Source of the DNA: Tubulanus polymorphus
Taxonomy: Eukaryota; Animalia; Nemertea
Length of the DNA stretch: 64,000 nt
Assembly: GCF_964204645.1 (NCBI RefSeq)
Contig: NC_134025.1
Location: 16,839,101-16,903,100 of the forward strand
Direction: 5' to 3'
The translations under genes and the position numbers were made by a program. Positions 2,008 through 56,089 of the stretch are shown here, piece after piece (positions within the stretch are counted from its first letter, which is position 1; every line of letters begins with the position of its first letter). The notes beneath the pieces were generated by a model that saw only the letters and a list, made by a program, of their open reading frames with translations, did no database searches and was not told where the DNA came from.

Positions 2008-2049
2008 AAAAATAATAAAAAATAAATAATTAATTTTTTTGTTTAATAA

Positions 2050-3305: not shown

Positions 3306-3335
3306 AAATATTAAGTTAAAATTAAGGATATATAA

Positions 3336-5072: not shown

Positions 5073-5077
5073 ATTCA

Positions 5078-5325: not shown

Positions 5326-5356
5326 ACATCACACAATTAATTTTTTAGTTATATAA

Positions 5357-34870: not shown

Positions 34871-35468
34871 AGTAATAGGGGTAATGGGCTTTCATACCAA
34901 AGGTCGAACGGTCGAGCTCATTAAAAAACAAAACATTAAAAGTAATTTAAAACTATAATATATTTTCATAACCGTGTGCATTTTATATTAAAACTAAATA
35001 TTTATTCTAAGATATCAATAATTTAAAAAGCATATTATATTAAATCAATTGGTCGCTCCACTTCGCTACCGCTCCGCTCCGCGACCAATTGATTTATTTA
35101 CAATACACAAATTCATATAATCAAATATATTCAAATAATAATAATTATTCTATTATTCAACTGAAATACACACGGTTATGCAAATATATTATAGTTTTAA
35201 ATTACTTTTAATATTTGTTATTAATGAACTCGACCATTCAACCTTTGATATGAAAGCCCATTACCCCTATTACTCTTAAAATATTCATATAAATGAATAA
35301 CATTTAAATCATTGAACTTCTAAAATCAATTTTAATAAAAAATTTAGTATTAAAATGGAAGCAAATAAGTACTACTGTCCAACATGTAATATCAATATAG
35401 ATAAATCCCAAAAAGCAAGACACAATAAAACTAAAACACATTTAGAGAATAAATTGAAACTAGAATAT
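34871..35468 (+). repeat. Left terminal inverted repeat (first 404 bp form an imperfect hairpin)
   Basis: Reverse complement of 52204-52801 with about six mismatches counted by eye; includes the first 38 codons of the Zn-finger ORF. Confidence 0.95.
35330..35357 (+). promoter_or_regulatory. Palindromic start motif TTTTAATA-N10-TATTAAAA(TG)
   Basis: Recurs at 39399-39425, 46237-46262, the right TIR and 55648-55675 (-). Confidence 0.55.
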
Positions 35469-35894
35469 GAAGATGATATATTAGAAACTAAATTAGATGA
35501 ATTAAAGAATGAAAAAGAAGCATACAAATGTGATACATGTAATCAATCATTTAGTGATAAAAGATATTATAATGAACATTTAAAATCTAAAAGTCATATT
35601 AGAAATATGAATAATGATATTTTAGGAGAAGATTATTTTGATAATGATAACGATAAGAAACATAAGACAATTAAAAGAATAAGAAATAAATTAAACAATA
35701 AAAGACCATACATGGAAGATGTAAGAAAATATATTAATTTATTGGATAATAAAAAAGATATTGAGATAACCGAAGCATTTAAAAGTGATATTGGTCCAGC
35801 AGCTATCGAGTTTAAATTTCATAAAGGAAAAACATTAGAAGAAAATAAAAAAACATTTAGAAAATATGAAAGAAATAATAAAAATAATAACTGA
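35355..35894 (+). CDS. C2H2-type zinc-finger protein; probably the frameshift-separated N-terminus of pPolB
   Basis: YCPTC..HNKTKTH and YKCDTC..HLKSKSH; overlaps polB, with an A7 run at 35847-35853 joining the frames. Confidence 0.75.
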   Translation: MEANKYYCPTCNINIDKSQKARHNKTKTHLENKLKLEYEDDILETKLDELKNEKEAYKCDTCNQSFSDKRYYNEHLKSKSHIRNMNNDILGEDYFDNDNDKKHKTIKRIRNKLNNKRPYMEDVRKYINLLDNKKDIEITEAFKSDIGPAAIEFKFHKGKTLEENKKTFRKYERNNKNNN

Positions 35895-38800
35895 TGTTGA
35901 ATATCCTAAAATTAGTATATCAGTTAAAGTAAAGTTTATAAAATCTGAAGATAAACCAATATACAATATAAATTCTCATTCACAACATATTATATCAAAA
36001 CAACATATAGATGACAAATTAGATAAATGTTATAATGAAGTAAAAACTAAAATAGAAGAGAAATATTTTGAAGGATCTGGTTTAATATTTGATGAAATAA
36101 TATTTATGACTTTACATGTTTATAACACAAAATATAATAAGTTAACTAAATCAAAACCAATTGATGAAAATAATGTATCATATTATAAAGAACCAGATAT
36201 TGAAGCATCGAGTTATATTAAACTACCATTTAAAACTAATGCTGTTATAAATGTACAAAATGAAGATGATAAATGTTTTCTATGGGCTATAATAAGTTGT
36301 TTACACCCAACAGAAGATATTACACATAGTTTTAGATTAACTCATTATAAACCATTTGAAAATAATTATAAGATAGATAAGTATCCTGTTAGAATTAAAA
36401 ACATCCCAAAGATAGAAAGAGATAATAATATAAAGATAAATGTATCTGATTTAATCAAATTACCAAATACAAAAGGTAACAATATAAAACATTATACATT
36501 AGAACCTTTATACCTATCAAAAGATTATGATTCAAACGGTGTTATAGATATATTATATTATGAGAATCATTATATGTGGATTAAACAAATAGATTTATTT
36601 TTTAAATCAGAAAATGATCACCATAAAATATATCTTTGTAGAAAATGTTTACATAGATTCAGTAATGAAAGTACATTATTAAATCATAAACATTTATGTG
36701 AAAATCATGATTATTGTAAATTAGTTTTACCAAATGAAAAGGATAAAATATTAGAATTCAAAAAATATGATTACAAAAATAAAGTTCCATTTGTAATATA
36801 TGGAGGTTTTGAATCATTAAATAAAGAATTAACTGATCAAGATAGAAAAGAAATATATTATAAAAGAAAGAAATTAAATTCTAATGAAAATGATTTTTCA
36901 GATGAACCACCAAAAACAAATACTATTAAAAAGATTCATCAATCAGCTGCAGCTTTCGGGTTATATATTAAATCTGATTATCCAGAACTAATTGAAAGTG
37001 AATATTATCATTACAGAAATGAAAATGTTATCAATCATTTTTGTGACTTATTAATTGAATATGAAATAAGATTTAGTAAATTATATAATACAAATATAGA
37101 AATTATAATGACAGAAGAAGATAAAGAAGAATTTGCGTTTGCAGGTAAATGTTATTATTGTGAAAAGATATTTAATTATAAAGATAAAAAAGTAAGAGAC
37201 CATGATCATTTGAATGGAAAGTTTAGAGGCGGCGCACATGAGAATTGTAACTTACAAGCTAAGAAAATTAACTTTGTACCAGTTATATTTCATAATCTAT
37301 CAGGATACGATGCACATTTATTCATCAAACAGTTATGCCATAAAATAGAAGAAATCAATAATGAAATAGAAATATTAAATTCAAATAGATCAAAAGATAA
37401 AATACCAACTTATAAATTTAGAATGTTAGCTAAAACATCTGAGAATTATATATCATTCCAATTTGGTTGCCTAAGATTTATAGATTCATATAGATTTTTA
37501 AATAGTTCATTAGATAACTTATCAAAATCATTAGTTGATGATGAATTAAAAATATTAAAGCAACATTACCCAAATAATGATGATTTTCAATTAATGAGAT
37601 ATAAAGGAGCAATTCCATATTCATTTTATAAATCACATAATGATTTCAATATGACTGAATTATTGAAAGAACAATTCTATGATGAATTAAAAAATGAATA
37701 TGTTAAAGATGAAGTCTATAATAGAACATTGAATATTTGGAATCATTTCAAAATAGAAAATCATGGGCAATTAGTAGATTTATATTTAAAATCAGATGTA
37801 TTATTATTAACCGATATATTCGAAAGGTTTAGAGATGTTAACCTAAAATATTTCAACATTGATCCTTGTCATTGTTATTCATCACCAGGATTAACATGGG
37901 ATTGTGGATTAAAATTTACAAATATAAAAATGGATTCGTTAACAAATATAGATCAATTACTATTATTTGAAAAATCTATAAGAGGAGGAGTTTCAGGTGT
38001 ATTAGGTGATAGATATTTCAATGTAAATGATAACCCTGGATATAAGTTATTATATATAGATGCAAATAATTTGTATGGTTGGGCAATGATGGAACCACAA
38101 CCTTATGGAGTATTTGAATTAACTGAAGTTTTACAGAATGAAAATAATGATAAATTTGATTGGAAGAAAAGAATCCTAGATATTGCAGATGATTCAGATA
38201 CTGGTTACTTCTTTGTTGTAGATTTAGAATATCCTGAACATATTAAATTTAAATCTAGAAATCTAGCATACTGCCCCGAACATAAAACTGTAACTCATGA
38301 AGAATTATCAAATTATCAAAAAAGAATTAAACCCGAAAATCATATTCATACAGAAAAGTTAATGGTAACTCAAGAAGATAAATATAATTATATAGTACAT
38401 TATAGAATGTTAAAGTTTTATCTAAAACAAGGAATGGTTCTAAAAAAAGTACATAGATATATTTCATTTAGTCAATCTAAGTGGTTAGAAAAATATATAG
38501 ATTTTAACATCAAACAGAGAACTAAAGCTAAAACTGATTTCGAAAAAGATTTCTATAAGTTAATGAATAATGCATTCTATGGTAAGACTTGTGAAAACAT
38601 TAGAAATAGAAATGATATTGAGTTAGTCAGTAATGGTAAAAGAATTAGACACTTACAATCATATCCTAAGTTCATTGGTAACAGAATATTTGATGAAAAT
38701 TTAGCCGCAGTTAAGATGAGAAGAACATCAATGAAATTTAATAAACCAATCTATGTTGGCGCTTCAGTTTTAGAATTATCAAAATTACTAATGTATGAAT

Positions 38801-39393
38801 TCTATTATAATATATTACAACCACTTTTTGGAGAAAAACATATAGAAATATTATATTTTGATACCGATTCTTACATATTAAAGATAAAAACTGATAACAT
38901 AACTGATGATTTAAAAACATTAAAACATCATTTTGATTTCAGTAATTATCCTAAAGATCATGACTTGTTTAGCAATGATAATAAAAAAGTTCCCGGTAAA
39001 TTCAAAGATGAATTAGGTGGTGAAGAAATGATTGAATTCATAGGTATTCGATCTAAAATGTATTCATATAAAACTAAAGAACATGAAGCTAAAAAGTTAA
39101 AAGGAATAACCAAAAGTGAAGTAGAAAAGAATATTCATTTCAAAGATTACATCAATTGTATATTCAATGAAGAAGTTAGAAAACATAAGATGAGATGTTT
39201 AAGATCTGAAGATCATGAAATGTTTATTGAAGAAATTGAAAAGATAAGTCTAAACCCATTTGATGATAAAAGATATATTCTGGATGATGGAATTCATACA
39301 GTTGCTTATGGTTGCAATTTAGATGAATACTTAAAATTTAAAAGAGAAGAAACAAAAGAGAACGAGATAACGAAAAGAATTCTAACGTGTTAA
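35866..39393 (+). CDS. polB: Protein-primed family B DNA polymerase with embedded endonuclease VII-like domain
   Basis: FHNLSGYD (ExoII), YLKSDV (ExoIII), YIDANNLYG, KLMNNAFYGK, YFDTDS; CYYC..RDHDHLNGKFRGGAHENCNL. Confidence 0.97.
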   Translation: MKEIIKIITDVEYPKISISVKVKFIKSEDKPIYNINSHSQHIISKQHIDDKLDKCYNEVKTKIEEKYFEGSGLIFDEIIFMTLHVYNTKYNKLTKSKPIDENNVSYYKEPDIEASSYIKLPFKTNAVINVQNEDDKCFLWAIISCLHPTEDITHSFRLTHYKPFENNYKIDKYPVRIKNIPKIERDNNIKINVSDLIKLPNTKGNNIKHYTLEPLYLSKDYDSNGVIDILYYENHYMWIKQIDLFFKSENDHHKIYLCRKCLHRFSNESTLLNHKHLCENHDYCKLVLPNEKDKILEFKKYDYKNKVPFVIYGGFESLNKELTDQDRKEIYYKRKKLNSNENDFSDEPPKTNTIKKIHQSAAAFGLYIKSDYPELIESEYYHYRNENVINHFCDLLIEYEIRFSKLYNTNIEIIMTEEDKEEFAFAGKCYYCEKIFNYKDKKVRDHDHLNGKFRGGAHENCNLQAKKINFVPVIFHNLSGYDAHLFIKQLCHKIEEINNEIEILNSNRSKDKIPTYKFRMLAKTSENYISFQFGCLRFIDSYRFLNSSLDNLSKSLVDDELKILKQHYPNNDDFQLMRYKGAIPYSFYKSHNDFNMTELLKEQFYDELKNEYVKDEVYNRTLNIWNHFKIENHGQLVDLYLKSDVLLLTDIFERFRDVNLKYFNIDPCHCYSSPGLTWDCGLKFTNIKMDSLTNIDQLLLFEKSIRGGVSGVLGDRYFNVNDNPGYKLLYIDANNLYGWAMMEPQPYGVFELTEVLQNENNDKFDWKKRILDIADDSDTGYFFVVDLEYPEHIKFKSRNLAYCPEHKTVTHEELSNYQKRIKPENHIHTEKLMVTQEDKYNYIVHYRMLKFYLKQGMVLKKVHRYISFSQSKWLEKYIDFNIKQRTKAKTDFEKDFYKLMNNAFYGKTCENIRNRNDIELVSNGKRIRHLQSYPKFIGNRIFDENLAAVKMRRTSMKFNKPIYVGASVLELSKLLMYEFYYNILQPLFGEKHIEILYFDTDSYILKIKTDNITDDLKTLKHHFDFSNYPKDHDLFSNDNKKVPGKFKDELGGEEMIEFIGIRSKMYSYKTKEHEAKKLKGITKSEVEKNIHFKDYINCIFNEEVRKHKMRCLRSEDHEMFIEEIEKISLNPFDDKRYILDDGIHTVAYGCNLDEYLKFKREETKENEITKRILTC

Positions 39394-39422
39394 TCAAATT
39401 TTAATAAAAATATGTTATTAAA

Positions 39423-39776
39423 ATGGAGAGTAAACAAGCAAACAGTGAGAACAACAAATTATTTCTAGATAGAATTAAAGATATCACAAATGTAAAATCT
39501 GCAGATTATAAATTCAAAAAGTTAACAGAATTAACAATCCATATGAAATATCTAATTACAAATATTGATACAGTTACTAATAACTATGGAGATAAATTAG
39601 TTATTCACTTAGAATATGAAGGATTAAAAGGAAATACATATAAATTCAGAACATATTTACCGGATAGATTTCATAGATTATCAAGTGAAGATCTAGAAGA
39701 ATTATGTTCTGGTGATTTCTATTTCGTATACAAAGGTAAGAATGAAAAAGGGCACCATGAAATAGATTTCGAATAA
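39423..39776 (+). CDS. Small conserved protein next to polB (possible OB-fold ssDNA-binding protein)
   Basis: Homologue at 7377-7704; beta-rich pattern with YG and LP motifs; function inferred only. Confidence 0.6.
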   Translation: MESKQANSENNKLFLDRIKDITNVKSADYKFKKLTELTIHMKYLITNIDTVTNNYGDKLVIHLEYEGLKGNTYKFRTYLPDRFHRLSSEDLEELCSGDFYFVYKGKNEKGHHEIDFE

Positions 39777-39793
39777 GAAAATATGTAAAATAA

Positions 39794-40552
39794 ATGGCGG
39801 AATTAAAAGAATACAGAATATTTGTTGATTCTAGAAGGCTTACAAATTATAAATCTCATAATTTACTAGTTCAATTAGATAGAGAATTCAAGAATTGTGT
39901 AGATTTGAAATTAGTCAATATAAGTTTATGTAATTCTTTTTACAATATATCGAATAAAACTATTGAACATAATACTTTTTTAATTCATATTAGAAATGTA
40001 AATAAATGGTTTCATCTAATTTTAAAACCAGGATTATATAATTTAGAAACATTAGCTCAAGAAATCAATCGTAGAGCACGGTTGAAAATTAGAAAAGATG
40101 ATAAATTTTTAATAAGATTTTTAAAAAGTGATAGCTCAAATAAAATTAAAATAAAGGTATTTGATGAAAGTCAACATGCATTTATAGTAAAAAAACCACT
40201 AGCTAAATTGCTAGGAATTGCACCAGATGTTGTTACAGTAAACGTAGAAGGCATTTCAAATATAATACCTTTTACACACTTTTATATTTATTGCAATTTA
40301 ATCGATCCTACAAAAACATTCGAAGCAACTAAAGATATAACTTGTAATTCTGGTTTACAAAACATTTTACCATTGAAGAATGTTAAAGAATTTGGAACGC
40401 AAATAAATTATAATTTAACAGAATGTGATTTCAAACCTTGTATTCCACATTTCAATAATTTCAAATTAGAAATAAGAAATCATAATGGTTATTTAATTGA
40501 TTTGAATAACTTTCCTGTAATATATGAATTAGTTATAGGATGTAGAGAGTAA
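39794..40552 (+). CDS. Minor capsid protein (penton, single jelly-roll)
   Basis: IFVDS, NSFYNIS, PGLYN, FYIYCNLI, EIRNHNGYLIDL pattern and size typical of Polinton pentons. Confidence 0.8.
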   Translation: MAELKEYRIFVDSRRLTNYKSHNLLVQLDREFKNCVDLKLVNISLCNSFYNISNKTIEHNTFLIHIRNVNKWFHLILKPGLYNLETLAQEINRRARLKIRKDDKFLIRFLKSDSSNKIKIKVFDESQHAFIVKKPLAKLLGIAPDVVTVNVEGISNIIPFTHFYIYCNLIDPTKTFEATKDITCNSGLQNILPLKNVKEFGTQINYNLTECDFKPCIPHFNNFKLEIRNHNGYLIDLNNFPVIYELVIGCRE

Positions 40553-40568
40553 TTTTTTCATTATATAA

Positions 40569-40925
40569 ATGAATATAACTGTTGGGCCGAGCATATGTTT
40601 TGGATTTGATTTTAAACGTGAGAAAGAAATGAAATTTAACGTTACTGATGTAATTACACATATTAAAAATATTGCATTTTCTAATGAAACAACATTTGAG
40701 TATGAAACAACAATAGATAAAGAAACTTTTAATGTAGAAAAGATTACTAATTTAATTAGAGAATCTTTAAGATTTTATGAATTAGATGAAGATTTTATCA
40801 TCGATGATATTAAAAAAATAATAATTGAAATATATACAAATGAAACTAGTAATGAAATAAATGTTGAATTAATCATCACTAAGATAACTAAATATTTTGA
40901 TGATAGTAATTTCTTTGATAAATAA
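40569..40925 (+). CDS. Hypothetical acidic protein
   Basis: Open frame in a tightly packed gene array with T6-N7-TAAATG start. Confidence 0.7.
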   Translation: MNITVGPSICFGFDFKREKEMKFNVTDVITHIKNIAFSNETTFEYETTIDKETFNVEKITNLIRESLRFYELDEDFIIDDIKKIIIEIYTNETSNEINVELIITKITKYFDDSNFFDK

Positions 40926-41147
40926 ATGAGTGATAATAAGTGGATAATAACTGGATTATATAATGGCGCATTACTATCAGTTGGAACTGTTGGTTATTCA
41001 ATGGTATTAAAAAAAGTATTTAAAATGGGAAGTGTTAATGTTGATAGATTTGATATAAATGATATCTTAAAATTAACATTAGCAGTTACTTTATCTAATT
41101 TAACTATTGATTATTTGGAAAAACAAAAATATATTCCTCCCATATAA
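40926..41147 (+). CDS. Small hydrophobic/amphipathic protein
   Basis: TAAATG start abutting the upstream stop; GLYNGALLSVGTVGYSMVL and ILKLTLAVTLSNL segments. Confidence 0.75.
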   Translation: MSDNKWIITGLYNGALLSVGTVGYSMVLKKVFKMGSVNVDRFDINDILKLTLAVTLSNLTIDYLEKQKYIPPI

Positions 41148-41173
41148 ATGCATAATTTTTTTTTGCTAAATAA

Positions 41174-41596
41174 ATGGCTTCTGCAATTATAACTATTATA
41201 GGATCGGCAATTGTTAACGCTTTAGCATTTACTGGTGGCGGTTATTTATTTAAGCATATTGATAAAAATAGTTCATTAGGAGAACAAAGAAGACATAACT
41301 TAGCATTAGAGAAATACAATAAAGCAGCAGAAGAATATAGAGAAAAAAGACAAAACTATATGGATTATATTAACAAGGAATTATATGATCAGAAGATTTC
41401 ACATAGAGATTTTCAATCAGTTGATGATGCAATGAGTTTATATAACGCGGTAACCAATAAAGAAAAATTACATCTATACAAACCTAAATTATCAGATTAT
41501 TATACCCCAAGTAATGAACAGAAGAAATATGAAATAATATGGATTTTAGGTGGAACTGTTATTGTTATATTTGTTGCTTATAAGTTTACTAATTAA
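41174..41596 (+). CDS. Putative membrane-active virion protein
   Basis: Hydrophobic N-terminus, EQRRHNLALE coiled segment, C-terminal TM IIWILGGTVIVIFVAY. Confidence 0.75.
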   Translation: MASAIITIIGSAIVNALAFTGGGYLFKHIDKNSSLGEQRRHNLALEKYNKAAEEYREKRQNYMDYINKELYDQKISHRDFQSVDDAMSLYNAVTNKEKLHLYKPKLSDYYTPSNEQKKYEIIWILGGTVIVIFVAYKFTN

Positions 41597-41621
41597 TTAT
41601 TTATTATTTTTTGTTAAATAA

Positions 41622-42083
41622 ATGGATGATAAAGTTGATAATATTGATATTATTCCTCATGATATAAATAAAACTAAATTAAAAATATATTTAGAAAAAC
41701 AAATATTAGAATTTGAAAGTGACTTAAAAGTAAAAAAGAAAAAATATCTAAAAAGTAAAATTATATATTATTTGATTATAAATGGTTCGGTTACAATTAG
41801 TTCTGTAATAACATTTCTAGCAATATTCAGTCCATTAACACCTTTAGCTATATCAATTGGTGTGTTAGGATTAAGTTCAAGTGTTTTAACTGGTATAAGT
41901 TCGAAATTGAATATTAAAAGTAATAAAGAAAAAATTAAAACTAATATAAAAGAAATTAATAAATTAAAGAATACACTAGATTATATAATAAGTTTAAATG
42001 GTCATATAACAGTTGAAGAACAAGATAAATTATTAAAAGAATTAATAAATTATCAATTTTTTAATTATATAAATGGCAGATAG
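41622..42083 (+). CDS. Two-TM membrane protein flanked by coiled coils
   Basis: IIYYLIINGSVTISSVITFLAIF and LAISIGVLGLSSSVLTGI. Confidence 0.75.
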   Translation: MDDKVDNIDIIPHDINKTKLKIYLEKQILEFESDLKVKKKKYLKSKIIYYLIINGSVTISSVITFLAIFSPLTPLAISIGVLGLSSSVLTGISSKLNIKSNKEKIKTNIKEINKLKNTLDYIISLNGHITVEEQDKLLKELINYQFFNYINGR

Positions 42084-43458
42084 TTTTCCAAAAGATTTCC
42101 AATATAATAAATCAATTAAATATAATATTCCAGCAATAGATTTTAATAAAGATATTACATATAGAAATGAAGTTTTAGATTCATTAACTAATTTAGAAAT
42201 TTATGTTACTGAAACTAATAATTTTAATGCAAAGATGGAAAATATATTTCATGTATATTTAATTAATTTTAAAAAATTGAAAGATGAAAAACAATGGTTA
42301 TTAAAATCTAACATGAAGTATTGGCAGAACCAATTAAATTTTGCTGTTTATTGTGCAACAACAGGATGTGGAATAAGTTGGAATGATCATTTGAATAATT
42401 CTAAATATAAACTAATTCAAAGTTTATTTAGATTTCATACATACTTTCAAATCAGAATAATATTAAATGAATTAGAGTGCGCTTTACCAGGATCTAGGTA
42501 TTTTAAAGAATTAGATAATAATATTAATTTATCAAAGTTTTATAAAATTTGTAATGAATTTAATATAGATATAAATAATTCTGATTTTAGAACAAAAATT
42601 GTAACAATAAGATCACTTTCTTGCCCCAAAAAGATTGCAGAATATTGTGCACTTCCCATACCATCTAATAGTTTGTATAATATCTATAGTCATAAATTAG
42701 GTTATGGTAAAATAGAAACTAAGGATTTAGAAACATTAAATTTTAATAAATTACCGACATTTTATGATAATTTAAAACAAGAAAACAATAATGGTTGGGT
42801 TTATTTCATTTTAGGAAATAATGAAGGTTTTACAAAATCAGGTATACAAAGAATAAATCAATCTATTAGAACTTATTTGATATGTATTCTAGGTGCACAA
42901 GTTGAAACAAGATCACCGATAATTGGAAATTTAAATACATCATTCGATACACAAAAACAATTTAAAGTTTTATTTGAAGATTCCATTCATAATGATAAAA
43001 ATAGATCGATTCCAGAAAACATTATAAGATATCAAAATTATTTAGATAAATCTCATGTAAGACTAAATTATTGTATAGGCCCTAATCTATTAATTATTTC
43101 TAATGATTTAGTATTGAAGATGGGAAATATAATTGGTTATAATAATCTAATTAAAACTGCAACAATAAATAATTCATTTGGATTAAATGATATAAATAAA
43201 AAGATTATTACCGCCCCAAAATTAATGGAAGGTGAAAAAAATAAAAAACATATTCAATCAACAGAAACTAAAACTAAGAATATTAAATTAAATAATGATT
43301 CTAAACCGGATTATAATACATCAGAAAATATTAAAACTGATAATATTCAACATGATATAATTAAAACTGATAATGATAATAAATTACATGAAAATACTAA
43401 ATTAGCTATAACTTGTATAGGAATTGTAATCGGAGGAATATTATATTTTAAATTTTAA
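42073..43458 (+). CDS. Conserved 461-aa hypothetical protein with C-terminal TM anchor
   Basis: Long open frame; WQNQLNFAVYCATTGCGIS motif; LAITCIGIVIGGILYF tail; homologue in copy A. Confidence 0.85.
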   Translation: MADSFPKDFQYNKSIKYNIPAIDFNKDITYRNEVLDSLTNLEIYVTETNNFNAKMENIFHVYLINFKKLKDEKQWLLKSNMKYWQNQLNFAVYCATTGCGISWNDHLNNSKYKLIQSLFRFHTYFQIRIILNELECALPGSRYFKELDNNINLSKFYKICNEFNIDINNSDFRTKIVTIRSLSCPKKIAEYCALPIPSNSLYNIYSHKLGYGKIETKDLETLNFNKLPTFYDNLKQENNNGWVYFILGNNEGFTKSGIQRINQSIRTYLICILGAQVETRSPIIGNLNTSFDTQKQFKVLFEDSIHNDKNRSIPENIIRYQNYLDKSHVRLNYCIGPNLLIISNDLVLKMGNIIGYNNLIKTATINNSFGLNDINKKIITAPKLMEGEKNKKHIQSTETKTKNIKLNNDSKPDYNTSENIKTDNIQHDIIKTDNDNKLHENTKLAITCIGIVIGGILYFKF

Positions 43459-43474
43459 GTTTTTTATTATGTAA

Positions 43475-44875
43475 ATGGCAGAAGGTGGGGAAGATATTCC
43501 ATTGAATCCTTTTGGTGATGAACCCGGTATAAGTGATGAACCACAACCTGATTTTAATGAAACTAATATTGATAATGATGATGAATCAGCATATAATTCT
43601 AATTTAGCAGATAGTGGTTCTAAAGTCCCATCAACAGAAGAAAATGATAGAAGAATTAGATCGAGAATACCTACTGAAAATTTAGACCCAGGTTTAGAAA
43701 GAGAAAATTTAGAAAATTATGAATTTATGTATGAATTTCAACATGTATTTAAAGAATCTGGATATAATATAAATGATAGAGGCGCTAGAGTTTTAGTACA
43801 AGAATTAAAATCTTTAGATGGTGAATATTATTATCATTTGAAAGATGATTATTATATTGATATCTCTTATAAAAAACAAAACAAAATATTAGCAGAATCA
43901 ACTTTGCTTAAGTCTGACTCATTACTATCTAGAATTAAAATAATAAGAAATGGTAATGAAATAGAAGATGTAACACAAGAAGAAATTATTAAAAATGAAA
44001 GAGTATTTAAACAAAGAATTAATGAATTATTTGAAACAATCAAAGATAATCCAGAAACAGAAACAACTTCTGAACAGAATAAAACTTCCAAAACTAGTAA
44101 ACTTAAATCAAATAAAGTTCCAATTGAAAAACTTTTACCGAATGGATTACTTGATGCAACAGATCAAGAATTAGAAGATTTAGATATATTTTCTGATAAA
44201 GCAATTAGAGAGATTATTAGTATAAGAAATGCATCTGATAAAATTGCGCATGATAAAAGTATAAGAGATTTTAAAATTAGAACTTTAGAAAAAGAATTAA
44301 CTGATAAAAATAAAGAAATAGAACAATTAAAGTCTGATTTAGATCATCAAGTAATTGATGAAATAGAATATAGGCAAAAAGAATTACGTTTAGAAAAAGA
44401 AAAAGATGATTTAGAATATAACATAGAATTACAAAAAGAAGAAATTAAATTATTATTAAAATCATATGATTATAATATTAATAGATTAAAAGATGTTTTT
44501 AAAAGATATCTAATAAAACCAGATTCTAAAATATCATTGAAAGATAGAATAAAATTATTATTTAAGTTTGAAGGAATAACAATTCTTTCAATTCTAACAG
44601 CTGTAACTATGTTATTTACAACAATAGGTTTAGCAATATCAAATGCTTTGAAATCTACTCCTACTCCCAATAAACCGGATAAACCCCCGAATGACAATAA
44701 TTCTATACAAGATAAAGTTAAGGATGGTTTAAAGAAATTAGCAAAATATTTATGGGAACTATCTAAAAAATCTGCTGCAGCATTGCCAGGAGTTATTGCA
44801 TCAATTGTTGGTTTTATATTGAAATCTGCTGGGAATATTCTTAACTTTGCTGCTGAACATATTATTTTATTTTAA
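43475..44875 (+). CDS. Acidic/coiled-coil protein with C-terminal TM helices (last helix cut by a frameshift)
   Basis: Homologue at 572-2007 continues LITVVSAIIFGLV; 1-nt indel near 44873. Confidence 0.8.
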   Translation: MAEGGEDIPLNPFGDEPGISDEPQPDFNETNIDNDDESAYNSNLADSGSKVPSTEENDRRIRSRIPTENLDPGLERENLENYEFMYEFQHVFKESGYNINDRGARVLVQELKSLDGEYYYHLKDDYYIDISYKKQNKILAESTLLKSDSLLSRIKIIRNGNEIEDVTQEEIIKNERVFKQRINELFETIKDNPETETTSEQNKTSKTSKLKSNKVPIEKLLPNGLLDATDQELEDLDIFSDKAIREIISIRNASDKIAHDKSIRDFKIRTLEKELTDKNKEIEQLKSDLDHQVIDEIEYRQKELRLEKEKDDLEYNIELQKEEIKLLLKSYDYNINRLKDVFKRYLIKPDSKISLKDRIKLLFKFEGITILSILTAVTMLFTTIGLAISNALKSTPTPNKPDKPPNDNNSIQDKVKDGLKKLAKYLWELSKKSAAALPGVIASIVGFILKSAGNILNFAAEHIILF

Positions 44876-44979
44876 AATTACAGTTGTAAGTGCTATTATT
44901 TTTGGGTTAGTAAATATGATATCAAAAAATATCAAGTAACCATGATTAAAAATAAATAATTAATTTCTTTGTTAAATAA

Positions 44980-46227
44980 ATGAGTGGGAGTTATATCAAT
45001 CCTTCTAAGAATCATAGAATATCTAATGCTATTAAAGCAGAAAGATCACATCAGATAATTACTAATAACCCTTCTAATATTAATCCTGGTGAAACTTTAT
45101 ATGTTAGAATTCATAGATTAACACAAAATACTTTTTATGTTCCAAATAGTATTTATTTATCAGCCGATATAAAAGTAACTGGCCATGATAACAATTATGT
45201 TGTTGATAATGTTGAAAGATATTTGATTAAAAAATTAACTATAAAGATTGGTCCGGAAACAGTTTTCTCATTAGATGATTATAATTTATTTATGCATTAT
45301 AAAGATTAATGGTTAACTAAAGAAAATAGAAATAATATGATATTTCAGGGTATTCAATCGGAAAACCATAATAAATTAAGATCAGGAGCTAATGACGCAA
45401 TAGTAACTCGTGCCACAGATAATTTGATAAAAAAGATTTATGGAAGCAAATATAAAATTCCATTAGACTTTGAATTGATAAATAATAATGCACCTTTATA
45501 TAAATACGCAATTCAAGAAGACGTTATATTCGAAATAACATTTGCTCCTGTAAATGAAATTGTATTATCTAGCGTTGTTAAAGATATGAGTTATGAATTA
45601 TCGAATATATGTTTAGAATATGATACAGTAACTGATGAAAATATTGCTAACACAATTCAAACTCAATACAATCAAGGATTTTCATTATTATATGATTATA
45701 TTGATAAATTTAAAACCGTAACTATTAATGCAAATGATGAAATTATTAATGAGAATATTAACTTCCCAAGAAGATCTATTAAAGGTATATTAATATTTTT
45801 TACCATTGCAACATATACTAATGGTGCAATAAATGTTGATAATTATTATAATCCTGAAATAACAAAAGTAAAAATAACTATCGAAGGAATAGCAAATAAA
45901 ATATTTTGTCAAGGAATGAGAATGATTGATCAATGGCCAGAAATTAGAAAACATTTTATGAATGAAAATGTGAAATCATCTGAAAATTGTAATATTAATC
46001 AAATTGATTATTATACCGGTAATAAATATGCATTATGGTTAGATTTTAAAACAACAGAGGATAATTCATTACATGGTTCTGGAAAAAAACTACAAAACAC
46101 TAAAGATGGAATACAATTATTCATGACAAAGAAAAAGGGAAGCCTAAATTTCAAAATGCATATTTATATTATATCTGACGCGCAATTAAATATTGTAAAT
46201 TCACAATTAGATAGTGTTATGTATTAA
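44980..46227 (+). pseudogene. Major capsid protein (double jelly-roll), single nonsense mutation
   Basis: 416-codon frame with TAA at 45307-45309 where copy A has TTA (Leu); beta-rich; size and context fit the MCP. Confidence 0.85.
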
Positions 46228-46259
46228 AATTTTAACTTTAATAAAAAATCTTATATTAA

Positions 46260-47099
46260 ATGGAAGGAGGTAAAGTATATAAACATATTCCATACATCGA
46301 TACACATGAAAATAATGATGGTTTATATTATGTAATACCTTGTAATATAGCTTTGATATTTGATCCTATTTTCAAAATTTATAAAACTAAACTAATAGAA
46401 ATCGATAATAATAAAAGTGGTGTTGTTGATAATTTAAGTAATGTAATTGATAATAATGTAATACCTACTACAGTAATACCTACTACAGTAATACCTACTA
46501 CATCTAATAATGTAATACCTACTACATATAATAATGCAATAATGTTAAATGTTAGTGAAAATAGAAATTATTGTGATTATTGTAAAGGTGAATTTTCAAA
46601 CGCTCCATCAAATTGGAATAAACATATGAATACAAAGGTACATATTACTAATGTTATAGAACGTGTTGGTTTAAGAGAATTTATAGAACACCCATTTAGA
46701 TATGTTACAAAGTTTGTTTCAAATAAAAAAGTAAATGGTAAAGAATTATATGAAGATTTTTTATTAGCAACACCTAATAAAGATGAATTAGATTTAACTG
46801 ATGCTAATGAAATATTAGGATCAAACACTGTAAATGAAATATTAGGAGCAAAGACTAATAAAGATTCTATGAAACATAAAGTAGAAAATAATGATAACTT
46901 TGATTGGATGAATAAGCATAACAATGAAACAACTATTGATGATTCGGTAAAAAAGGTGAAAAATAAGTATAAAAATAATAAAGAATTTGAAGAAGAAAAT
47001 TCGGTAGAGAATTTGAAAAAATTGATGGGGTATGATAGTGAATTGGAGAGTGATGATGAAAGTGATTCAGAAAGTAATTATCTAACACTCAAAAAGTAA
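46260..47099 (+). CDS. Zinc-finger protein with VIPTT repeats and acidic tail
   Basis: YCDYC..NWNKHMNTKVH; repeated gtaatacctacta units; absent at this position in copy A. Confidence 0.75.
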   Translation: MEGGKVYKHIPYIDTHENNDGLYYVIPCNIALIFDPIFKIYKTKLIEIDNNKSGVVDNLSNVIDNNVIPTTVIPTTVIPTTSNNVIPTTYNNAIMLNVSENRNYCDYCKGEFSNAPSNWNKHMNTKVHITNVIERVGLREFIEHPFRYVTKFVSNKKVNGKELYEDFLLATPNKDELDLTDANEILGSNTVNEILGAKTNKDSMKHKVENNDNFDWMNKHNNETTIDDSVKKVKNKYKNNKEFEEENSVENLKKLMGYDSELESDDESDSESNYLTLKK

Positions 47100-47158
47100 T
47101 AAAGGTTGAAAATTGTATAAAATAATAGTAAATAAAAAAGGGGTTTTTAAGTATTTAA

Positions 47159-47238
47159 GGTATCTAATAGGGTATCAGGTATTAGGGTATCAGGTATTAG
47201 GGTATCTAATGGGGTATCAGGTATTAGGGTATCTAATA
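47159..47238. repeat. 16-bp-type tandem repeat (gggtatcaggtatta) between convergent gene blocks
   Basis: Direct read. Confidence 0.85.
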
Positions 47239-47254
47239 CATAGTCATATAAATT

Positions 47255-47866
47255 TTATTTTATAAATTTATATTCATAGGGAAATTGTAGTCTCAGTAAT
47301 AATTTTGAACCTTTATTATTCTTTAATTTATTCATATATTCATCGTGTAATTCAGTAGGTATAATTTGATTTTCTTCCAATGATTGTTGCATAGATTTTT
47401 TATCTTTGTTATAAAATAAAACTAGAAATCTTATATCCTCCCTAAAGTCTTAAACAATTGAATTATATTTTTGATTTAAAACCCATGTTGTTATCCCAAA
47501 ATGTCTCCCAGAGAAAGCTAAATAACATAACTCACTTTCTCTCACTTTTGAATCATGTAAATTAGCGCAATCATCTATAATGAATAATGTATTTGATCCT
47601 TTATAAGTATCAATTGCTATTTTTATACAATTATCTAAATTTTCTTTTACTGTTTTAGGGTCTAATATAATAAACTTTTTCTTCTTAACTATATCTCTAT
47701 TATATGTTTTATTCATTTCATAAGTAGGACAGAATAATATTATATTATCAAAATGATTCTTATAAATAGTTTCTAACAAATCTAATATGAAATGTGTTTT
47801 ACCACAGTTTGTTACTCCAGTAACTAACATATTATGCGGTTCAAATATAAATAAATCTTTATTCAT
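47255..47866 (-). pseudogene. Packaging ATPase with one nonsense mutation
   Basis: GVTNCGKT, FIIDD, GRH; TAA at 47450-47452 replaces Lys; frame continues DFREDIRFL..QFPYEYKFIK. Confidence 0.9.
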
Positions 47867-48971
47867 TTATTCTTTTAATTTTACTAGATAAAATCCATTC
47901 ATTAAATTTATCATCGTATCCTTTATATTTCACCAAAGAATACTTTTTTCCTTTAAGAGTTTTTGTTTTCAATACTTTTTCTATTTTGTATTCTATTTCA
48001 TCTGGATTTGGTACAAGTGATAATTCTTGTTCATAGAAATAACCTAATATTTCTTCATCTTTTAGATCTTCTAATTTATAAACAAAAGGTTTAGTTAATA
48101 TTATCTTTTTAATCTTGAATATTTCTTCTGTAAAATTTGGGGTATAACCTTTATAAAATGTTTTTCGATATTTAGATATTCTTACGTGTTGTCCTATTTT
48201 AAATTTAGGTTCACCGAAATCGTGTGTAACAAACGCTCCATATAAATTATTCCAAACTATTTCCGAATTATCTTCTTTTCTAGCTTGTATAGGTTTCATA
48301 TTTATAGAACTATGTTTAGAATTATCATAACCTTTCACTAAATCATCTAACACATCGATATATTTATATGTTTCATTAGCAGTAAAGTATTTCCACATTC
48401 TAGTTTTCAATGTTTTATTAAATCTTTCTATAATAGATGCTTTTTTATCTGAGTGTGTTGAAAAATAATCTACATCGTTATCAGATAATAGTTTTTTGAA
48501 ATGTTTGTTATAAAATTCCTTACCTTCATCAAATTGTATCTAATCTGGAATAGCTTCTTTAAATATAGATTTAAAAGCATTTGTAACTTCTATTCCAGTT
48601 TTATTTTTGATTGGAATTGACCATGCGTATCTACTGAATATGTCTATAACATTCAGTATCCAGAAATATCCTTTGTTGTATTCCTCTAAGTTCTTCATAT
48701 CAATTAAATCTGCTTGCCATTGTTGATCGATATATGAAACCATAACTTTTCTTGTTAAATAAGTTTTATCCATTTTCTTGTGGATTTGATATGTTGGTTG
48801 ATTTTGTAACCATGATTTTAATTCGCTATATTTTATACCACCATGTGGGCGCCATACGGCACCATCACCATTATCAGATTTAATTTTATTCCATAATTCT
48901 GAAACGTTAGAATATGATACTTCACTCTCTGGGTTATAATAAAAATCTCTTAAATATTGTTCTTTTTTCAT
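47859..48971 (-). pseudogene. int: rve integrase with chromodomain, one nonsense mutation
   Basis: QWQADLIDM, IQFDEGKEF, ERFNKTLK, chromodomain; in-frame TAG at 48540-48542. Confidence 0.92.
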
Positions 48972-48977
48972 CTTATT

Positions 48978-49346
48978 TTAATCCATTAATAATAATTTAG
49001 ATTTAGTTTCAATGGCTTTATGATTTGACTTATTTTCTGGTATGATAGGTTTATTGTCATTGGAATCATCTTTATCATCAGATTTGAATTTTGATTTATA
49101 TATTACACCGGATAATATAATAACTGTTACTAATCCAATTGTAATATATAATTTATAATTACTTCCAGCATTAGAAGAATCAGATGGATTATTATTTGAA
49201 TCAATATCAGATAAAGTCTGTGATTCATTTATATCAGTTAATTTCTTTTTCTTAGCTTTTTTTAATTCTGAAGATCTTTTACCTAATTCTCTTGCCCATT
49301 TAATTTGTTTCTCGGATCTAGCCTTTTTCTTAACGCCATCACTCAT
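48978..49346 (-). CDS. Small basic protein with one TM helix
   Basis: Homologue of 5895-6251; LYITIGLVTVIILSGVIY. Confidence 0.8.
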   Translation of the reverse strand: MSDGVKKKARSEKQIKWARELGKRSSELKKAKKKKLTDINESQTLSDIDSNNNPSDSSNAGSNYKLYITIGLVTVIILSGVIYKSKFKSDDKDDSNDNKPIIPENKSNHKAIETKSKLLLMD

Positions 49347-49371
49347 TTATTTTAGTTAATTTTTGTTCTGA

Positions 49372-49941
49372 TTAATTTTTTGTTTCGACGTTTGGTTGTA
49401 GTACATCTGTTTCATTCTTACCTGATTTATATTCCATAGACTTGATATTCGAAAATGTAATGACACCAGTAGAAATTAATGTCATAACCGATCCTAATTG
49501 AAATGAAGCATAACCAACCCATTTTTGTAATTCAGTCATAACTAAATAGTCATTTTTCAAATCACTATATAATTTATTTTCATCATCAATTGGCATTAAC
49601 TGGTTACATAATTTTGAATAACATTTGACAATACCATCTGAAATAGAATCATTTATTCTAGCTAATCTTGCTTCTTCATAAATCTTAAAATATTTTATTA
49701 CTTTATCTGGTTTCATAGCATCTAATTCTTGAAAAGTAATGATTCTATTTAAAAACTCCTTAGTTTTTCCACCGGCAATCAATAGTTCTAGATGATGCTT
49801 ACAATATAAATAGTATTCATAATCAATATTACAATTAACTTGAGCACAATTAGTTACAACTGTATCGTTATTATCACTTATACCCAAATCATCTAATGTC
49901 TTTTCAATATCAATACTATTCTTATTAGATTTCTTTGACAT
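49372..49941 (-). CDS. Conserved Polinton hypothetical protein
   Basis: Homologue of 5357-5962. Confidence 0.85.
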   Translation of the reverse strand: MSKKSNKNSIDIEKTLDDLGISDNNDTVVTNCAQVNCNIDYEYYLYCKHHLELLIAGGKTKEFLNRIITFQELDAMKPDKVIKYFKIYEEARLARINDSISDGIVKCYSKLCNQLMPIDDENKLYSDLKNDYLVMTELQKWVGYASFQLGSVMTLISTGVITFSNIKSMEYKSGKNETDVLQPNVETKN

Positions 49942-50353
49942 TTATATTAGAGAAAAAAAGCAAAAAAATATTATAAGTATTCTTCAAATGATACTAGCTA
50001 GTTAAAGCTAAAGAATTCTAGTATTGACTACTGATACTAGCTATTTGAATTTAAAGAATTTCTATTTGAATCTATTCAAAATATAAAGTATTCTCTTTTG
50101 AAAAGAAAATATTAGAAATATAATAGAATTCACTAGCTAGTTGAAGTTATTGTTTTTTTATTATATTTTATTTGAATTCTATTTGATATCTCACTACTTT
50201 TGTTTATCTATTAGGAGCAGTAATTATAACCGTCCAGATAAGTCATTTCGGATCCTTGATATCAAATTCCTCAACGTATTGTTCATTATTTGGATCATTG
50301 TTCCATTGATCAATAAATTTCTTTGCCTTTGTTAACTGTTCTAAAGATAACTG

Positions 50354-50917
50354 TTAATCTAGTTTATTAGATTTAATTATGTTTTCCTTCTTTTCTAAAG
50401 GTCTTAAATTCTTCCAATTCCAAATAAGTTTTTTATTGTATTCATCATTCATGTTAAATTTAGATATTGGTAACACGTGATCAATATGGTAATAATCCCC
50501 ATAATTATCTATATTCATTTTATCATCGAATTGAAATATAATCCATGATTTGAGAAATTCATCTGAACAACCCAATAAATTAGATAGTGTTTCTGAATGT
50601 GTTTCTTTGTTGAATAATTGTGTTAATCTAGATCTTAAGCATTGTTTCAATCTAAAATTAAGATCTGTTTGATATCTTTCTCTCATATATTCTGCCATAT
50701 AATAATTATAATGTTCTATATTATCTTCTCGATATTGTTTAGTATATAGTTTAGTGCAAGTTTTACAGCAATATTGAAAACCATCTTTGCTAATCTTACG
50801 CTTACTAAATTCTGTTAATGATTTATCTAATTCACACTTAGAACACTTCTTGTAATATATATTTATAACACCAGTATTATTTGTAATATTGATAATTTGT
50901 GGTTGTTCTGGTTCCAT
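50354..50917 (-). CDS. HNH endonuclease with N-terminal zinc ribbon
   Basis: KKCSKC..CKTC; YHIDHVLPIS..NLRPL..ENIIKSNK. Confidence 0.85.
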   Translation of the reverse strand: MEPEQPQIINITNNTGVINIYYKKCSKCELDKSLTEFSKRKISKDGFQYCCKTCTKLYTKQYREDNIEHYNYYMAEYMRERYQTDLNFRLKQCLRSRLTQLFNKETHSETLSNLLGCSDEFLKSWIIFQFDDKMNIDNYGDYYHIDHVLPISKFNMNDEYNKKLIWNWKNLRPLEKKENIIKSNKLD

Positions 50918-51054
50918 TTATTATATGTATTTTTTACTAAATTGGTTAATATTTTAGAATCCTCTTCCATTTCTTCGACCAACGTCATCCTTTTTCATTC
51001 CTCGCTGCTTTTGATAAGTTGTTTCGATTCCTTGATATCTAAATCATACCACTG

Positions 51055-51410
51055 GGCAAAACCGCGCATTCGTGCGCGCTTTTGATCAATGCGCATGCGC
51101 TAATCATAATTATATTTACATAACGAATATATAATTATGTAAATAGAAACGACCGAACACAGAAAATATCAAAACGTGTTCGCATTAGGCAAACCGCGCA
51201 TTCATGCGCGCTTTTGCTAAATGCGCATGCGCTAATCCTAATTATATATTCATTCTGTAAATTCTGTAAAATAGAAACGACCGAACACAGAAAATATCAA
51301 AACGTGTTCGCATTAGGCAAACCGCGCATTCATGCGCGCTTTTGATCAATGCGCATGCGCTAATCCTAATTATATATTCATTCTGAATAGAAACGACCGA
51401 ACATAAAAAT
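51055..51410. repeat. Three ~130-bp GC-containing tandem repeats with TGCGCATGCGC
   Basis: Units start at ~51056, 51188 and 51316. Confidence 0.9.
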
Positions 51411-52065
51411 TCACCAAACAGATTTACACAATACATTATACAAGTTGTTCGGCCGTTTCTTCCAATACATCATTTGATTTCTATAAATACAATTTATAAT
51501 TACAAGCATTTTTTCAATTGCCGGTAAATATTTAACAACAACAACAAATGTTAAACTTAATCATTGGAGTCTTAATGTTTTTGCAATTCTTATATAGTTT
51601 CTTCATCGATCTTTTGTGATTCTATTGGTTTGATATCCATTGCTGTTGATTCCTCAGTCAGAAAGAGTATCTTGAGTTTCTCTATCACTTCTTGATGCGT
51701 ATGGCGTTTTATTAATCTAAAAGATATTAGCGGTAACTCTAGCTATCTAAAACATATACTAAATACACTTAAATATATCTAAAGGTTTCATATTTAATAG
51801 CCATAATAACTACAACAAACAGTACTTACATTTAGATTTAGAATTGTAAACTATAAACTCCTAATTTCGTTTCGAGAGATAGAATATCCTGAGCACAATG
51901 TTACAGCGTATGTTCATTTCTTGCCACGTCATCTGGTTCCGGTTCTAGAGTGTTCTCTGCACGTTTGTAATAATGAGTCATAAGTCTCGGCGTCATAGTA
52001 ACAGCTGTAACAGCTGTGAATTTATAGATTTATTCCATAGCTCTTTACATTGAATGTATATAGGT

Positions 52066-52317
52066 TCAAATAGAATCATGTTCTAGTATAAACATCGGAT
52101 CCTTGATGTCAAATTCCTCAACGTATTGTTCATTATTTGGATCATTATTCCATAATTCAATAAATTTCTTTGCCTTTGTTAACTGTTCTGAATATAACTG
52201 TAAATATTCAAGTTTCAATTTATTCTCTAAATGTGTTTTAGTTTTATTGTGTCTTGCTTTTTGGGATTTATCTATATTGATATTACATGTTGGACAGTAG
52301 TACTTATTTGCTTCCAT
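52066..52317 (-). CDS. Short zinc-finger ORF starting in the right TIR
   Basis: First 38 aa identical to 35355-35894, then a different C-terminus. Confidence 0.6.
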   Translation of the reverse strand: MEANKYYCPTCNINIDKSQKARHNKTKTHLENKLKLEYLQLYSEQLTKAKKFIELWNNDPNNEQYVEEFDIKDPMFILEHDSI

Positions 52318-52801
52318 TTTAATACTAAATTTTTTATTAAAATTGATTTTAGAAGTTCAATGATTTAAATGTTATTCATTCATATGAATATTTTAAGAGT
52401 AATAGGGGTAATGGGCTTTCATATCAAAGGTTGAATGGTCGAGTTCATTAATAACAAATATTAAAAGTAATTTAAAACTATAATATATTTGCATAACCGT
52501 GTGTATTTCAGTTGAATAATAGAATAATTATTATTATTTGAATATATTTGATTATATGAATTTGTGTATTGTAAATAAATAAATTGGTCGCGGAGCGGAG
52601 CGGTTGCGAAGTGGAGCGACCAATTGATTTAATACAATATGCTTTTTAAATTATTGATATCTTAGAATAAATATTTAGTTTTAATATAAAATGCACACGG
52701 TTATGAAAATATATTATAGTTTTAAATTACTTTTAATGTTTTGTTTTTGAATGAGCTCGACCGTTCGACCTTTGGTATGAAAGCCCATTACCCCTATTAC
52801 T
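52204..52801 (-). repeat. Right terminal inverted repeat (hairpin 52398-52801)
   Basis: Reverse complement of 34871-35468. Confidence 0.95.
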
Positions 52802-55029: not shown

Positions 55030-55650
55030 TTACTCTTTACACCAGTTTTTATGTTTAATTGTTTCATAATGCTTTGATTTATGTGATTTTAAATATTTAC
55101 CTCCGCAATAACAATGCACTTTTTCATTAGGATTGAATTTTCTAAATTCATCTCCTAAACTACATTGAACTGCAATATCTTTAAATGATTTTTCATTATC
55201 TAATTCACATTGAATTCCAATATTTGATGAATTTTCATTAAAGATAATTTGTTTATTATCAAAATTGAAATAATATAATTGTCTTTTTTCAATTCTTAAG
55301 TTAATCAAATCATTGTAATCTTTTGAAAGTATTATATCACTTTTTCTTTCATTGAAAGGGGTTTGAAGTATATTTATTATGTTTTCATCTAAAGTTCCTT
55401 TAAAATTTAAAACTGTATTGAATACTTTAGGATTTTTAACACCATTATCAGAAGTATCAATTAGTTTAGTAATTAAATATGTTTCATTTGATAATATTTG
55501 ATTAATCATAGTTATGTTATCGATTTTATAATGTCTTGCAGACACTAAATTTGTTGCTGAAATATAATTTCTAATGTTAAACTGTGAAAATGATTTATTG
55601 GTTTCATTGATTTCGATTTTAAAGTTGGGTTCTTCTTCTTCTTTCTTCAT
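55030..55650 (-). CDS. Hypothetical protein with C-terminal zinc finger
   Basis: CYCGGKYLKSHKSKHYETIKH; start MKKEEEE follows the palindromic motif. Confidence 0.7.
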   Translation of the reverse strand: MKKEEEEPNFKIEINETNKSFSQFNIRNYISATNLVSARHYKIDNITMINQILSNETYLITKLIDTSDNGVKNPKVFNTVLNFKGTLDENIINILQTPFNERKSDIILSKDYNDLINLRIEKRQLYYFNFDNKQIIFNENSSNIGIQCELDNEKSFKDIAVQCSLGDEFRKFNPNEKVHCYCGGKYLKSHKSKHYETIKHKNWCKE

Positions 55651-56089
55651 TTTAATAACAAAACTTTTATTAAAATGAATCCAACGCATATAAATATAAA
55701 TATTCACGGTTTTAAATATGAATTATTTCACTCACACTTTTGTATTGAATAATCTATCAATTTATATGTTATTCATATATATTTTATTCATTTATATGAA
55801 TATTTTAAGAGTAATAGGGGTAATGGGCTTTCAGGTTAAAGGTTGAATGGTCGAGCTCATAAAAAATGAAAAATATGCCTTAAAATAACTACAGATTTTT
55901 TCCACACCGTACACATGAATTTATACGTTTATCAAAGACGACAAAGAATAAGGACATAAATTCAACCAACAGGATATTGAAGGGCAGTGGATCAAAATAT
56001 TTAAGTTCCATATATTGGTAGCACAAAAGAAGTCTACTTAAGCAGCTGAACCACTGACCTTTAAAAAGTGAGCACTTGATTTTATAATT

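Follow-up and report, generated by a model that had tools for sequence, protein, structure and literature searches.

The window, that is, the whole stretch of 64,000 nucleotides analyzed here, contains an integrated Polinton/Maverick with terminal inverted repeats (TIRs) of 598 bp (34871-35468 and 52204-52801) and a flanking 6-bp target-site duplication, whose genes have Pfam matches to pPolB, the rve integrase, and the A32 packaging ATPase (Table 1). The open reading frame (ORF) at 35355 was originally labeled ZnF/polB; it encodes zinc fingers and is the N terminus of the polymerase gene, which is split over two reading frames in the window copy and forms a continuous frame in sister copies. 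The 117-amino-acid (aa) protein is, to judge from its structure model (pLDDT 83), likely a single-stranded-DNA-binding protein (SSB) with an OB fold near those of phage SSBs. Foldseek matched the model to a phage SSB (E 6.1e-05), and it aligned with OB-fold entries over 70 residues (Z up to 5.7, rmsd 2.8), which backs the SSB label given earlier to the ORF at the 39399 site; its sequence profile gave zero matches in PDB and Pfam.

Table 1. Features of the window and of related loci (L, separate loci; classes A and T are defined in the text)
Feature	Position	Strand	Basis
Right part of second-subfamily Polinton copy	1..6251	+	
Integrated Polinton/Maverick, 17.9 kb	34871..52801	.	TIRs, 6-bp target-site duplication, pPolB/rve/A32 matches
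Class-A start of zinc-finger/pPolB gene	35330..35357	+	inside left TIR; block, spacer, TAAA over ATG
Protein-primed DNA polymerase B gene, N-terminal zinc fingers	35355..39393	+	PF03175, E 1.6e-15
Class-A start of 117-aa gene	39399..39425	+	motif match
117-aa gene, predicted OB-fold protein	39423..39776	+	structure model, Foldseek
Virion cassette, 8 genes	39794..46227	+	penton-like, six unnamed, major-capsid-like
Class-A start of 279-aa zinc-finger gene	46237..46262	+	7-bp arms
279-aa zinc-finger gene (ZnF279)	46260-47099	+	behind class-A start
ATPase, integrase, 122-aa, and 189-aa genes	47450..49941	-	reading frames, Pfam
187-aa HNH-like gene (presumed)	50354-50917	-	behind non-palindromic class-A start
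Class-A start of HNH-like gene, non-palindromic	50915..50941	-	block and initiator
Right-TIR copy of polymerase start	52315..52342	-	TIR pairing
Class-A start of 206-aa gene (C206; 55030-55650)	55648..55675	-	fragment of small non-autonomous element
VLTF3-like fusion behind several zinc fingers	L287:1399-2703, L286:514-1839	-, +	profile matches
Head-to-head start regions	L188:370-399, L189:2017-2046, L190:788-819, L192:238-267, L201:1994-2014		

The six unnamed genes of the virion cassette encode proteins of 118, 73, 140, 153, 461, and 466 aa. The penton-like gene is named from its size and position alone, and the major-capsid-like gene, broken in the window copy, from a Capsid_N match with an E value of 0.012. 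In this copy the ATPase gene is also short and the integrase gene broken. We take the 187-aa protein to be HNH-like from a motif spotted by eye; the Pfam scan matched it to no HNH family, and among the 25 element proteins scanned it found no cysteine protease family. The Polinton family is large and young, with 1669 candidates in the genome, and the 132 that were scored are 92 to 100% identical in the capsid-like protein.

Several repeats accompany the element. Within 34871-35274 and 52398-52801, each TIR holds an internal 57-bp inverted copy of the element end about 290 bases inward, and the same stretches also hold a 66-bp inverted pair. Inside the Polinton, positions 51000-52060 have a higher GC content and three 71-bp repeats and are likely a secondary insertion. 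Farther right, at 62354-64000, lies a minus-strand fragment of a polymerase gene that is 89 to 97% identical to 37573-39164.

Start signals of the replication and zinc-finger genes

The original prediction described a palindromic motif at the starts of replication and zinc-finger genes. Exact matches to TTTTAATA-N7..12-TATTAAAA occur four times in the window, at 35330-35355, 39399-39423, 52317-52342, and 55650-55675, compared to a mean of 0.00 in 100 shuffles, none of which reached four; the site at 46237-46260 has 7-bp arms. At all five sites, the right arm overlaps the ATG and the spacer opens with an A-run, as had been stated. The five sites are present but not independent: those at 35330 and 52317 are the two TIR copies, and the one at 55650 follows related terminal sequence in a small derived element. 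The 83-aa ORF behind the right-TIR start has only its first 38 residues in common with the polymerase gene. A further start, that of the HNH-like gene, was overlooked in the earlier reading because it is non-palindromic.

The motif was not equally frequent away from gene starts. Between 35300 and 50960, 4 of 16 gene starts and none of 633 other ATGs have the left block together with the TAAA initiator; TAA(A)ATG was found at 15 of these gene starts compared to 45 of the 633 (p 8e-16). Throughout the genome, TTTAATA-N8..11-TATTAAAATG has 989 matches and its reversed control 5, and all 30 of the genome matches that were fetched as loci stand at starts of element genes. The block lies 14 to 17 nucleotides (nt) from the initiator and 18 to 21 nt before the ATG, while its distance to the upstream stop codon varies (29, 32, 84, 95, or 105 nt, or no upstream gene).

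The start region adjacent to the TIR is joined to the polymerase, SSB, or HNH-like gene, depending on the copy (L056, L160, L164, L175, L179, and L246), so that the class-A sites are partly copies of each other; modules may be shuffled by crossing over at these common starts. An unassigned ORF of 242 aa that begins at a TAAA-type signal was seen near element copies, at L257:6233-6961 (minus strand).

Two classes of gene starts

Gene starts in the source genome fall into two classes. In class T, comprising eight genes, a T-tract occupies positions -13 to -7 from the T of TAAA; T stands at -10 in all 170 starts that have the initiator, and 170 of 175 starts read TAAATG. In class A, comprising the polymerase, SSB, HNH-like, ZnF279, VLTF3-like, and C206 genes, an A-tract occupies -14 to -10, with A at -10 in 66 of 78 starts. 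TAAAATG or longer forms were found in 36 of 79 class-A starts and in none of the 175 class-T starts. All class-A genes open with ATGGA or ATGAA. The starts of the VLTF3-like gene have the block and yet carry T at -10 (11/11), which makes them hybrid starts.

Seven of the eight starts in the virion cassette are class T, as is that of the 189-aa gene. The earlier statement that the motif was not seen at structural genes holds for the eight T-tract genes in the window copy, but the penton-like and ATPase genes have A-rich starts. The ATPase, integrase, 122-aa, and penton-like genes have mixed starts, some of them overlapping coding DNA; the two subfamilies differ at the penton-like gene, where one has an A allele and the other a T allele. 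TAAATG as an overlap of stop and start codons was considered as well and, among class-T starts, applies to the 73-aa gene only.

The palindrome across homologous starts

Homologous starts were collected from 40 upstream and 20 downstream 10-kb halves of elements, taken from the 132 capsid matches and picked regardless of promoters. Starts were located by the first residues of each protein, patterns that miss diverged starts; before the count, nonspecific rows for ZnF279 and a single host row for the 461-aa gene were removed. Among the resulting 79 class-A starts, 78 have TAAA at the start codon and 70 the left A-rich block, and 28 have 8-bp arms. The latter were confined to the polymerase (18/23) and SSB (10/24) genes and were found at no start of the HNH-like (0/11), ZnF279 (0/9), VLTF3-like (0/11), or C206 (0/1) genes. 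In this set, 51 starts were without symmetry and no compensatory arm changes were observed: where the right arm is altered to TATAAATG or TAATAAATG, the left arm is unchanged. The genome holds a further 109 sites in which the block is followed by an asymmetric TAAATG end, compared to 0 controls. In relatives, none of the four starts that keep the left block is symmetric, with arms of 4 bp or less in all four.

Since the arms vary while the block and TAAA persist, the conserved parts are block and initiator and not the symmetry. The palindrome itself is likely to be incidental: TTTA within the block is the reverse complement of TAAA in the initiator, and the symmetry results from this.

Signals in related elements

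A metagenome scan returned 22 loci with 29 to 77% capsid identity. From 18 of these, 69 starts of non-polymerase genes were scored; L181, L191, and L193 were omitted because they are near-copies, and usable starts were lacking in L200 and in L202, the latter a hit among genome contigs. Of 58 starts in 14 loci, two of which have a GC content of 44%, 54 have the initiator; in a sister group (L194, L195, L197, and L199), none of 11 starts does. The 25-row capsid tree places 12 rows with TAAATG in one clade (support 100/99) and the three rows without it in another (90/95), L201 being a long branch. Virion-cassette starts with the initiator have T at -10 in 28 of 31 cases in these relatives.

Among the scored loci, the class-A block is restricted to the closest relatives (L180, L182, and L184; 71 to 77% capsid identity), where it stands at four starts, ZnF279 in L180 and L184 and the penton-like and VLTF3-N-like genes in L182, the penton-like gene of L182 carrying the complete left block; A is at -10 in three of the four. 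Genes also swap classes: T is at -10 in the SSB gene of L182 and in five HNH-like genes (L180, L186, L187, L189, and L196). By eye, no comparable signal was seen in three distant polymerase relatives (33 to 36% identity). A motif scan of viral contigs gave 96 stretches, the first 80 of which were compared with 13 element proteins and matched none of them, and scans of viral contigs with the capsid and the VLTF3 domain found nothing.

The starts of the sister group, which are without TAAATG, mostly have TATA 4 to 14 bases before the ATG, similar to the late initiator of African swine fever virus (ASFV); the sister clade may depend on another helper. Some relatives contain head-to-head genes 19 to 30 bases apart that have one CATTTA..TAAATG start region in common (Table 1). 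A deoxynucleoside kinase gene (PF01712, E 1.7e-31) stands behind a T-tract start at L182:10340-10981 (minus strand).

A VLTF3-like gene in sister copies

A search for helper genes in the genome returned 63 matches to PF04947 (Pox_VLTF3) over the Pfam cut-off. The domain sits in a zinc-finger gene of 430 to 447 aa, which is present in 13 of the 40 upstream halves, always beside an intein-bearing polymerase, and stands behind a class-A block; the other 27 sampled copies and the window element are without it. It is arranged head-to-head with the penton-like gene, 68 bp apart in 8 of 10 cases measured. One match, at G000:C1:16834145-16834375, lies about 4.7 kb to the left of the window and likely belongs to the second-subfamily copy at its left end. 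Vaccinia virus A2L is itself an intermediate gene.

The C-terminal 206 residues match PF04947 with an E value of 2.7e-06 and 27.7 bits (cut-off 25) at profile positions 84 to 164 of 168, that is, over half of the profile, and 6 of 12 copies match. Zn-ribbon matches cover residues 11 to 43 of the domain, and the VLTF3 domain follows. Compared to the Atlas VLTF3 cluster, the domain scored 0.96. Its structure model is poor (pLDDT 61), with VLTF3 entries at ranks 1, 3, 26, and 30 at E values of 0.17 or worse, and a search of solved structures with this low-confidence model yielded only generic helical bundles. A homolog search with the domain found none, a whole-protein hmmscan missed PF04947, and the match of the profile to one giant-virus VLTF3 was weak (29% over 69 columns, E 0.044, probability 1.2). 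The pN/pS ratio of the domain is 0.85 among six copies, two of which are one locus, a value that says little for insertions this young.

According to the accessible text of PMC11253617, VLTF3 homologs are not known outside the Nucleocytoviricota, and a VLTF3-like gene in a Polinton would matter when VLTF3 serves to mark this group. The polymerase gene of the second subfamily contains an inserted segment that matches LAGLIDADG weakly (E 0.01) and has intein-like ends (L286:1836-2648, minus strand), and an insertion of this kind was seen in 14 of the 40 upstream halves.

Comparison with poxvirus promoters

Poxvirus late promoters are described as TAAAT(G) with T ten bases upstream, and intermediate promoters as TAAA with an A-preferring upstream region (PMC11980589, PMC5294985). 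In vaccinia virus, the intermediate core lies at -26 to -13 and is clamped by VITF-3 at -22/-21 and -19/-18, the spacer is uncontacted, and TAAA is read by Rpo132; the available part of this account gives the core no defined consensus (PMC12917281). The AT-rich block at 35330 occupies -22 to -10 and overlaps the region of the intermediate core, about one helical turn from TAAA. When this site was compared by eye with the vaccinia virus G8R promoter (PMC12917281), 8 of 9 bases agreed at -22 to -14, 8 of 8 at -2 to +6, and 2 of 11 in the spacer; as the vaccinia core lacks a consensus, the agreement amounts to a single comparison, made post hoc, between AT-rich sequences. The G8R promoter, which has T at -10, is itself a 7-bp pseudo-palindrome from core to initiator, again because TTTA is the reverse complement of TAAA.

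The element signals resemble vaccinia virus intermediate and late promoters in their two-part layout, their spacing, and the TAAA at the start codon (PMC12917281, PMC11980589, PMC5294985), as well as in the restriction of TAAAATG to the A class, the pseudo-symmetry of G8R, and, apart from VLTF3-like and some relatives' starts, the preference for A or T about 10 nt upstream. The proposal of a separate class akin to poxvirus intermediate promoters is in part borne out by the geometry, the contrast with the T-tract class, and the conservation in relatives. Unlike those of vaccinia virus, however, the Polinton signals sit in an integrated element without an RNA polymerase gene, and the block is more uniform than the vaccinia core. 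In vaccinia virus, A1L, A2L, A22R, A32L, and D13L are intermediate genes and E9L and I3L early ones; class A serves polymerase and SSB genes, which are early genes in vaccinia virus.

Two other viral signals were rejected as matches: the poxvirus early promoter, since the block is without the central TG in nearly all copies, and the mimivirus early motif AAAATTGA, since its overlap with the block (35326-35333) is on the incorrect strand and relatives do not conserve it.

A possible helper and its rivals

With two start signals that resemble poxvirus intermediate and late promoters, the element probably relies on a poxvirus-like helper for its transcription machinery. The reading we favor, and consider rather probable from sequence comparison, is that class A corresponds to a poxvirus-intermediate-type step of a cascade and class T to a late one, both read by the polymerase of such a helper, as in virophages. 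The Polinton would be silent until a poxvirus-like virus infects the cell; the helper polymerase would then read class A first, namely the polymerase, SSB, zinc-finger, and VLTF3-like genes, and later class T with the virion genes. The block would act as promoter core, transcription would begin in the A-run of TAAA and give a slipped poly(A) leader, and the VLTF3-like protein may help to switch on the virion cassette. Poxvirus early factors act inside the virion core, so the intermediate class would be the first one open to a satellite; with the early factors closed to it, the polymerase and SSB genes would use the intermediate class here. Searches of the host genome for helper genes with the Pox_int_trans, Pox_TAA1, and Pox_RNA_pol profiles, run without a positive control, were blank. 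The host is an animal, as its Wnt genes show, and may be other than an arthropod, given that the arthropod cuticle domain matched nothing in a search likewise run without a positive control. The genome contains over a thousand candidate insertions, which implies frequent access to the nucleus that a rare helper must explain, and the assignment of genes to classes shifts between the source genome and relatives.

Alternatively, host RNA polymerase II could read both classes in the nucleus; the element would then need no helper and would have the VLTF3-like protein as its own late switch. This we regard as unlikely, though it would sit well with the very high copy number, the blank helper searches, and the head-to-head position of the VLTF3-like gene and the virion cassette. 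TAAATG places a T three bases before the ATG, which is a poor eukaryotic start context, and 27 of the 40 sampled copies would have to do without the switch. Mriyaviruses offer a parallel in that they have VLTF3 but lack an RNA polymerase gene and are presumed to be nuclear (PMC11253617). Since the distance from a TATA box to the start is about 24 bp (PMC7163114), a block 18 to 21 nt before the ATG would place the start of transcription at or behind the ATG, and TAAA is a sequence that poxvirus Rpo132 reads directly (PMC12917281). An asfarvirus-like helper, for which class A would be an early-type and class T a late-type promoter, seems quite improbable to us. ASFV has an early initiator TANA with an AT-rich motif ending 9 to 10 bp upstream and a late initiator TATA (PMC7163114); in class A, the A-run stops some 9 nt short of TAAA, and roughly half of the class-T starts read ATATAAATG. 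However, what stays invariant in the element signals is a TAAAT joined to the ATG, as in poxviruses, the median lengths of ASFV leaders are 9 to 14 nt, and ASFV early factors are packaged in virions (PMC7163114); TATA before the ATG is a trait of the sister clade and not of the TAAATG clade.

Two further readings see no poxvirus-type promoter in the block, and we give either very little credence. The original prediction had offered the palindrome as an operator for a dimeric zinc-finger protein encoded by the element, which would autoregulate the class-A genes. Several class-A genes do encode zinc fingers and the 8-bp arms are frequent at polymerase and SSB starts, but this proposal is not supported by the other class-A genes, the asymmetric sites in the genome and in relatives, a left arm that does not follow changes in the right one, and a spacer that varies in length and opens with a conserved A-run. 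The block could also belong to the gene upstream as its AATAAA poly(A) signal, or have been spread when gene modules recombined. It does contain AATAAA, and the common ATGGA/ATGAA openings and the joining of the TIR start to different genes would fit such a spread. Against this, no gene lies upstream of the TIR site, the spacing is fixed to the downstream TAAA and not to the upstream stop, AGTAAA variants exist, the block is kept in relatives despite their divergence, and of the 99 occurrences of AATAAA in the element the complete signal is found at starts only.

Returning to a poxvirus-like helper, a fuller version appears conceivable to us but falls short of probable: the element may be an endogenous poxvirus virophage of a non-arthropod animal, with its own cascade on a poxvirus-type polymerase, a captured VLTF3 steering late transcription to the virion genes, a small satellite, and TATA-start sister clades on other helpers. 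Such a virophage would point to an undescribed poxvirus-like virus. We know of no poxvirus from this host animal group, for which one would then be predicted; virophage-type parasitism would extend to germline elements of animals, and the start motif would mark which helper a Polinton needs. The two poxvirus-like classes make the question of promoter use and helper need in animal Polintons testable.

Relation to other elements

Virophages have promoter motifs in common with their helper viruses (PMC10945749). Mavirus and EMALEs with CroV (PMC10945749) and the pacmanvirus transpoviron (PMC11788076) are similar to the element described here in being integrating pPolB/rve elements with starts that match promoters of large DNA viruses, different lineages bearing different motifs. 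In contrast to virophages, the Polinton has an animal host, poxvirus-type motifs, two presumably post-replicative classes, and a VLTF3-like gene of its own. [quoted passage not shown] Mavericks/Polintons and adintoviruses have the TIRs, 6-bp target duplication, pPolB, rve, A32 ATPase, and capsid-like genes seen here, but the present family differs in that no protease was found and in its VLTF3-like cargo; promoters are not described in the available text of PMC8502044. Mriyaviruses likewise combine a small genome and VLTF3 with the lack of an RNA polymerase; unlike the Polinton, they are described as having VLTF2 and an HUH endonuclease and no pPolB (PMC11253617). In a mainly open-access literature search, we found no account of poxvirus-type promoters or of VLTF3 in animal Polintons; the present analysis adds the two classes and how often each occurs, the negative outcome of the palindrome test, a pattern that extends over a clade, and the VLTF3-like gene.

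A small non-autonomous element

Positions 53880-55875 of the window represent part of a small element that is non-autonomous and has ends of the Polinton type; its 206-aa gene has a class-A start. It is possible that this element is a satellite of the Polinton. A copy of 5.4 kb with a 6-bp target duplication was found at L174:3720-9084; either end of it carries the 206-aa gene, and it also has a tandem array of 24-bp units and two small genes with T-tract starts. The genome contains 673 candidates for this small element.
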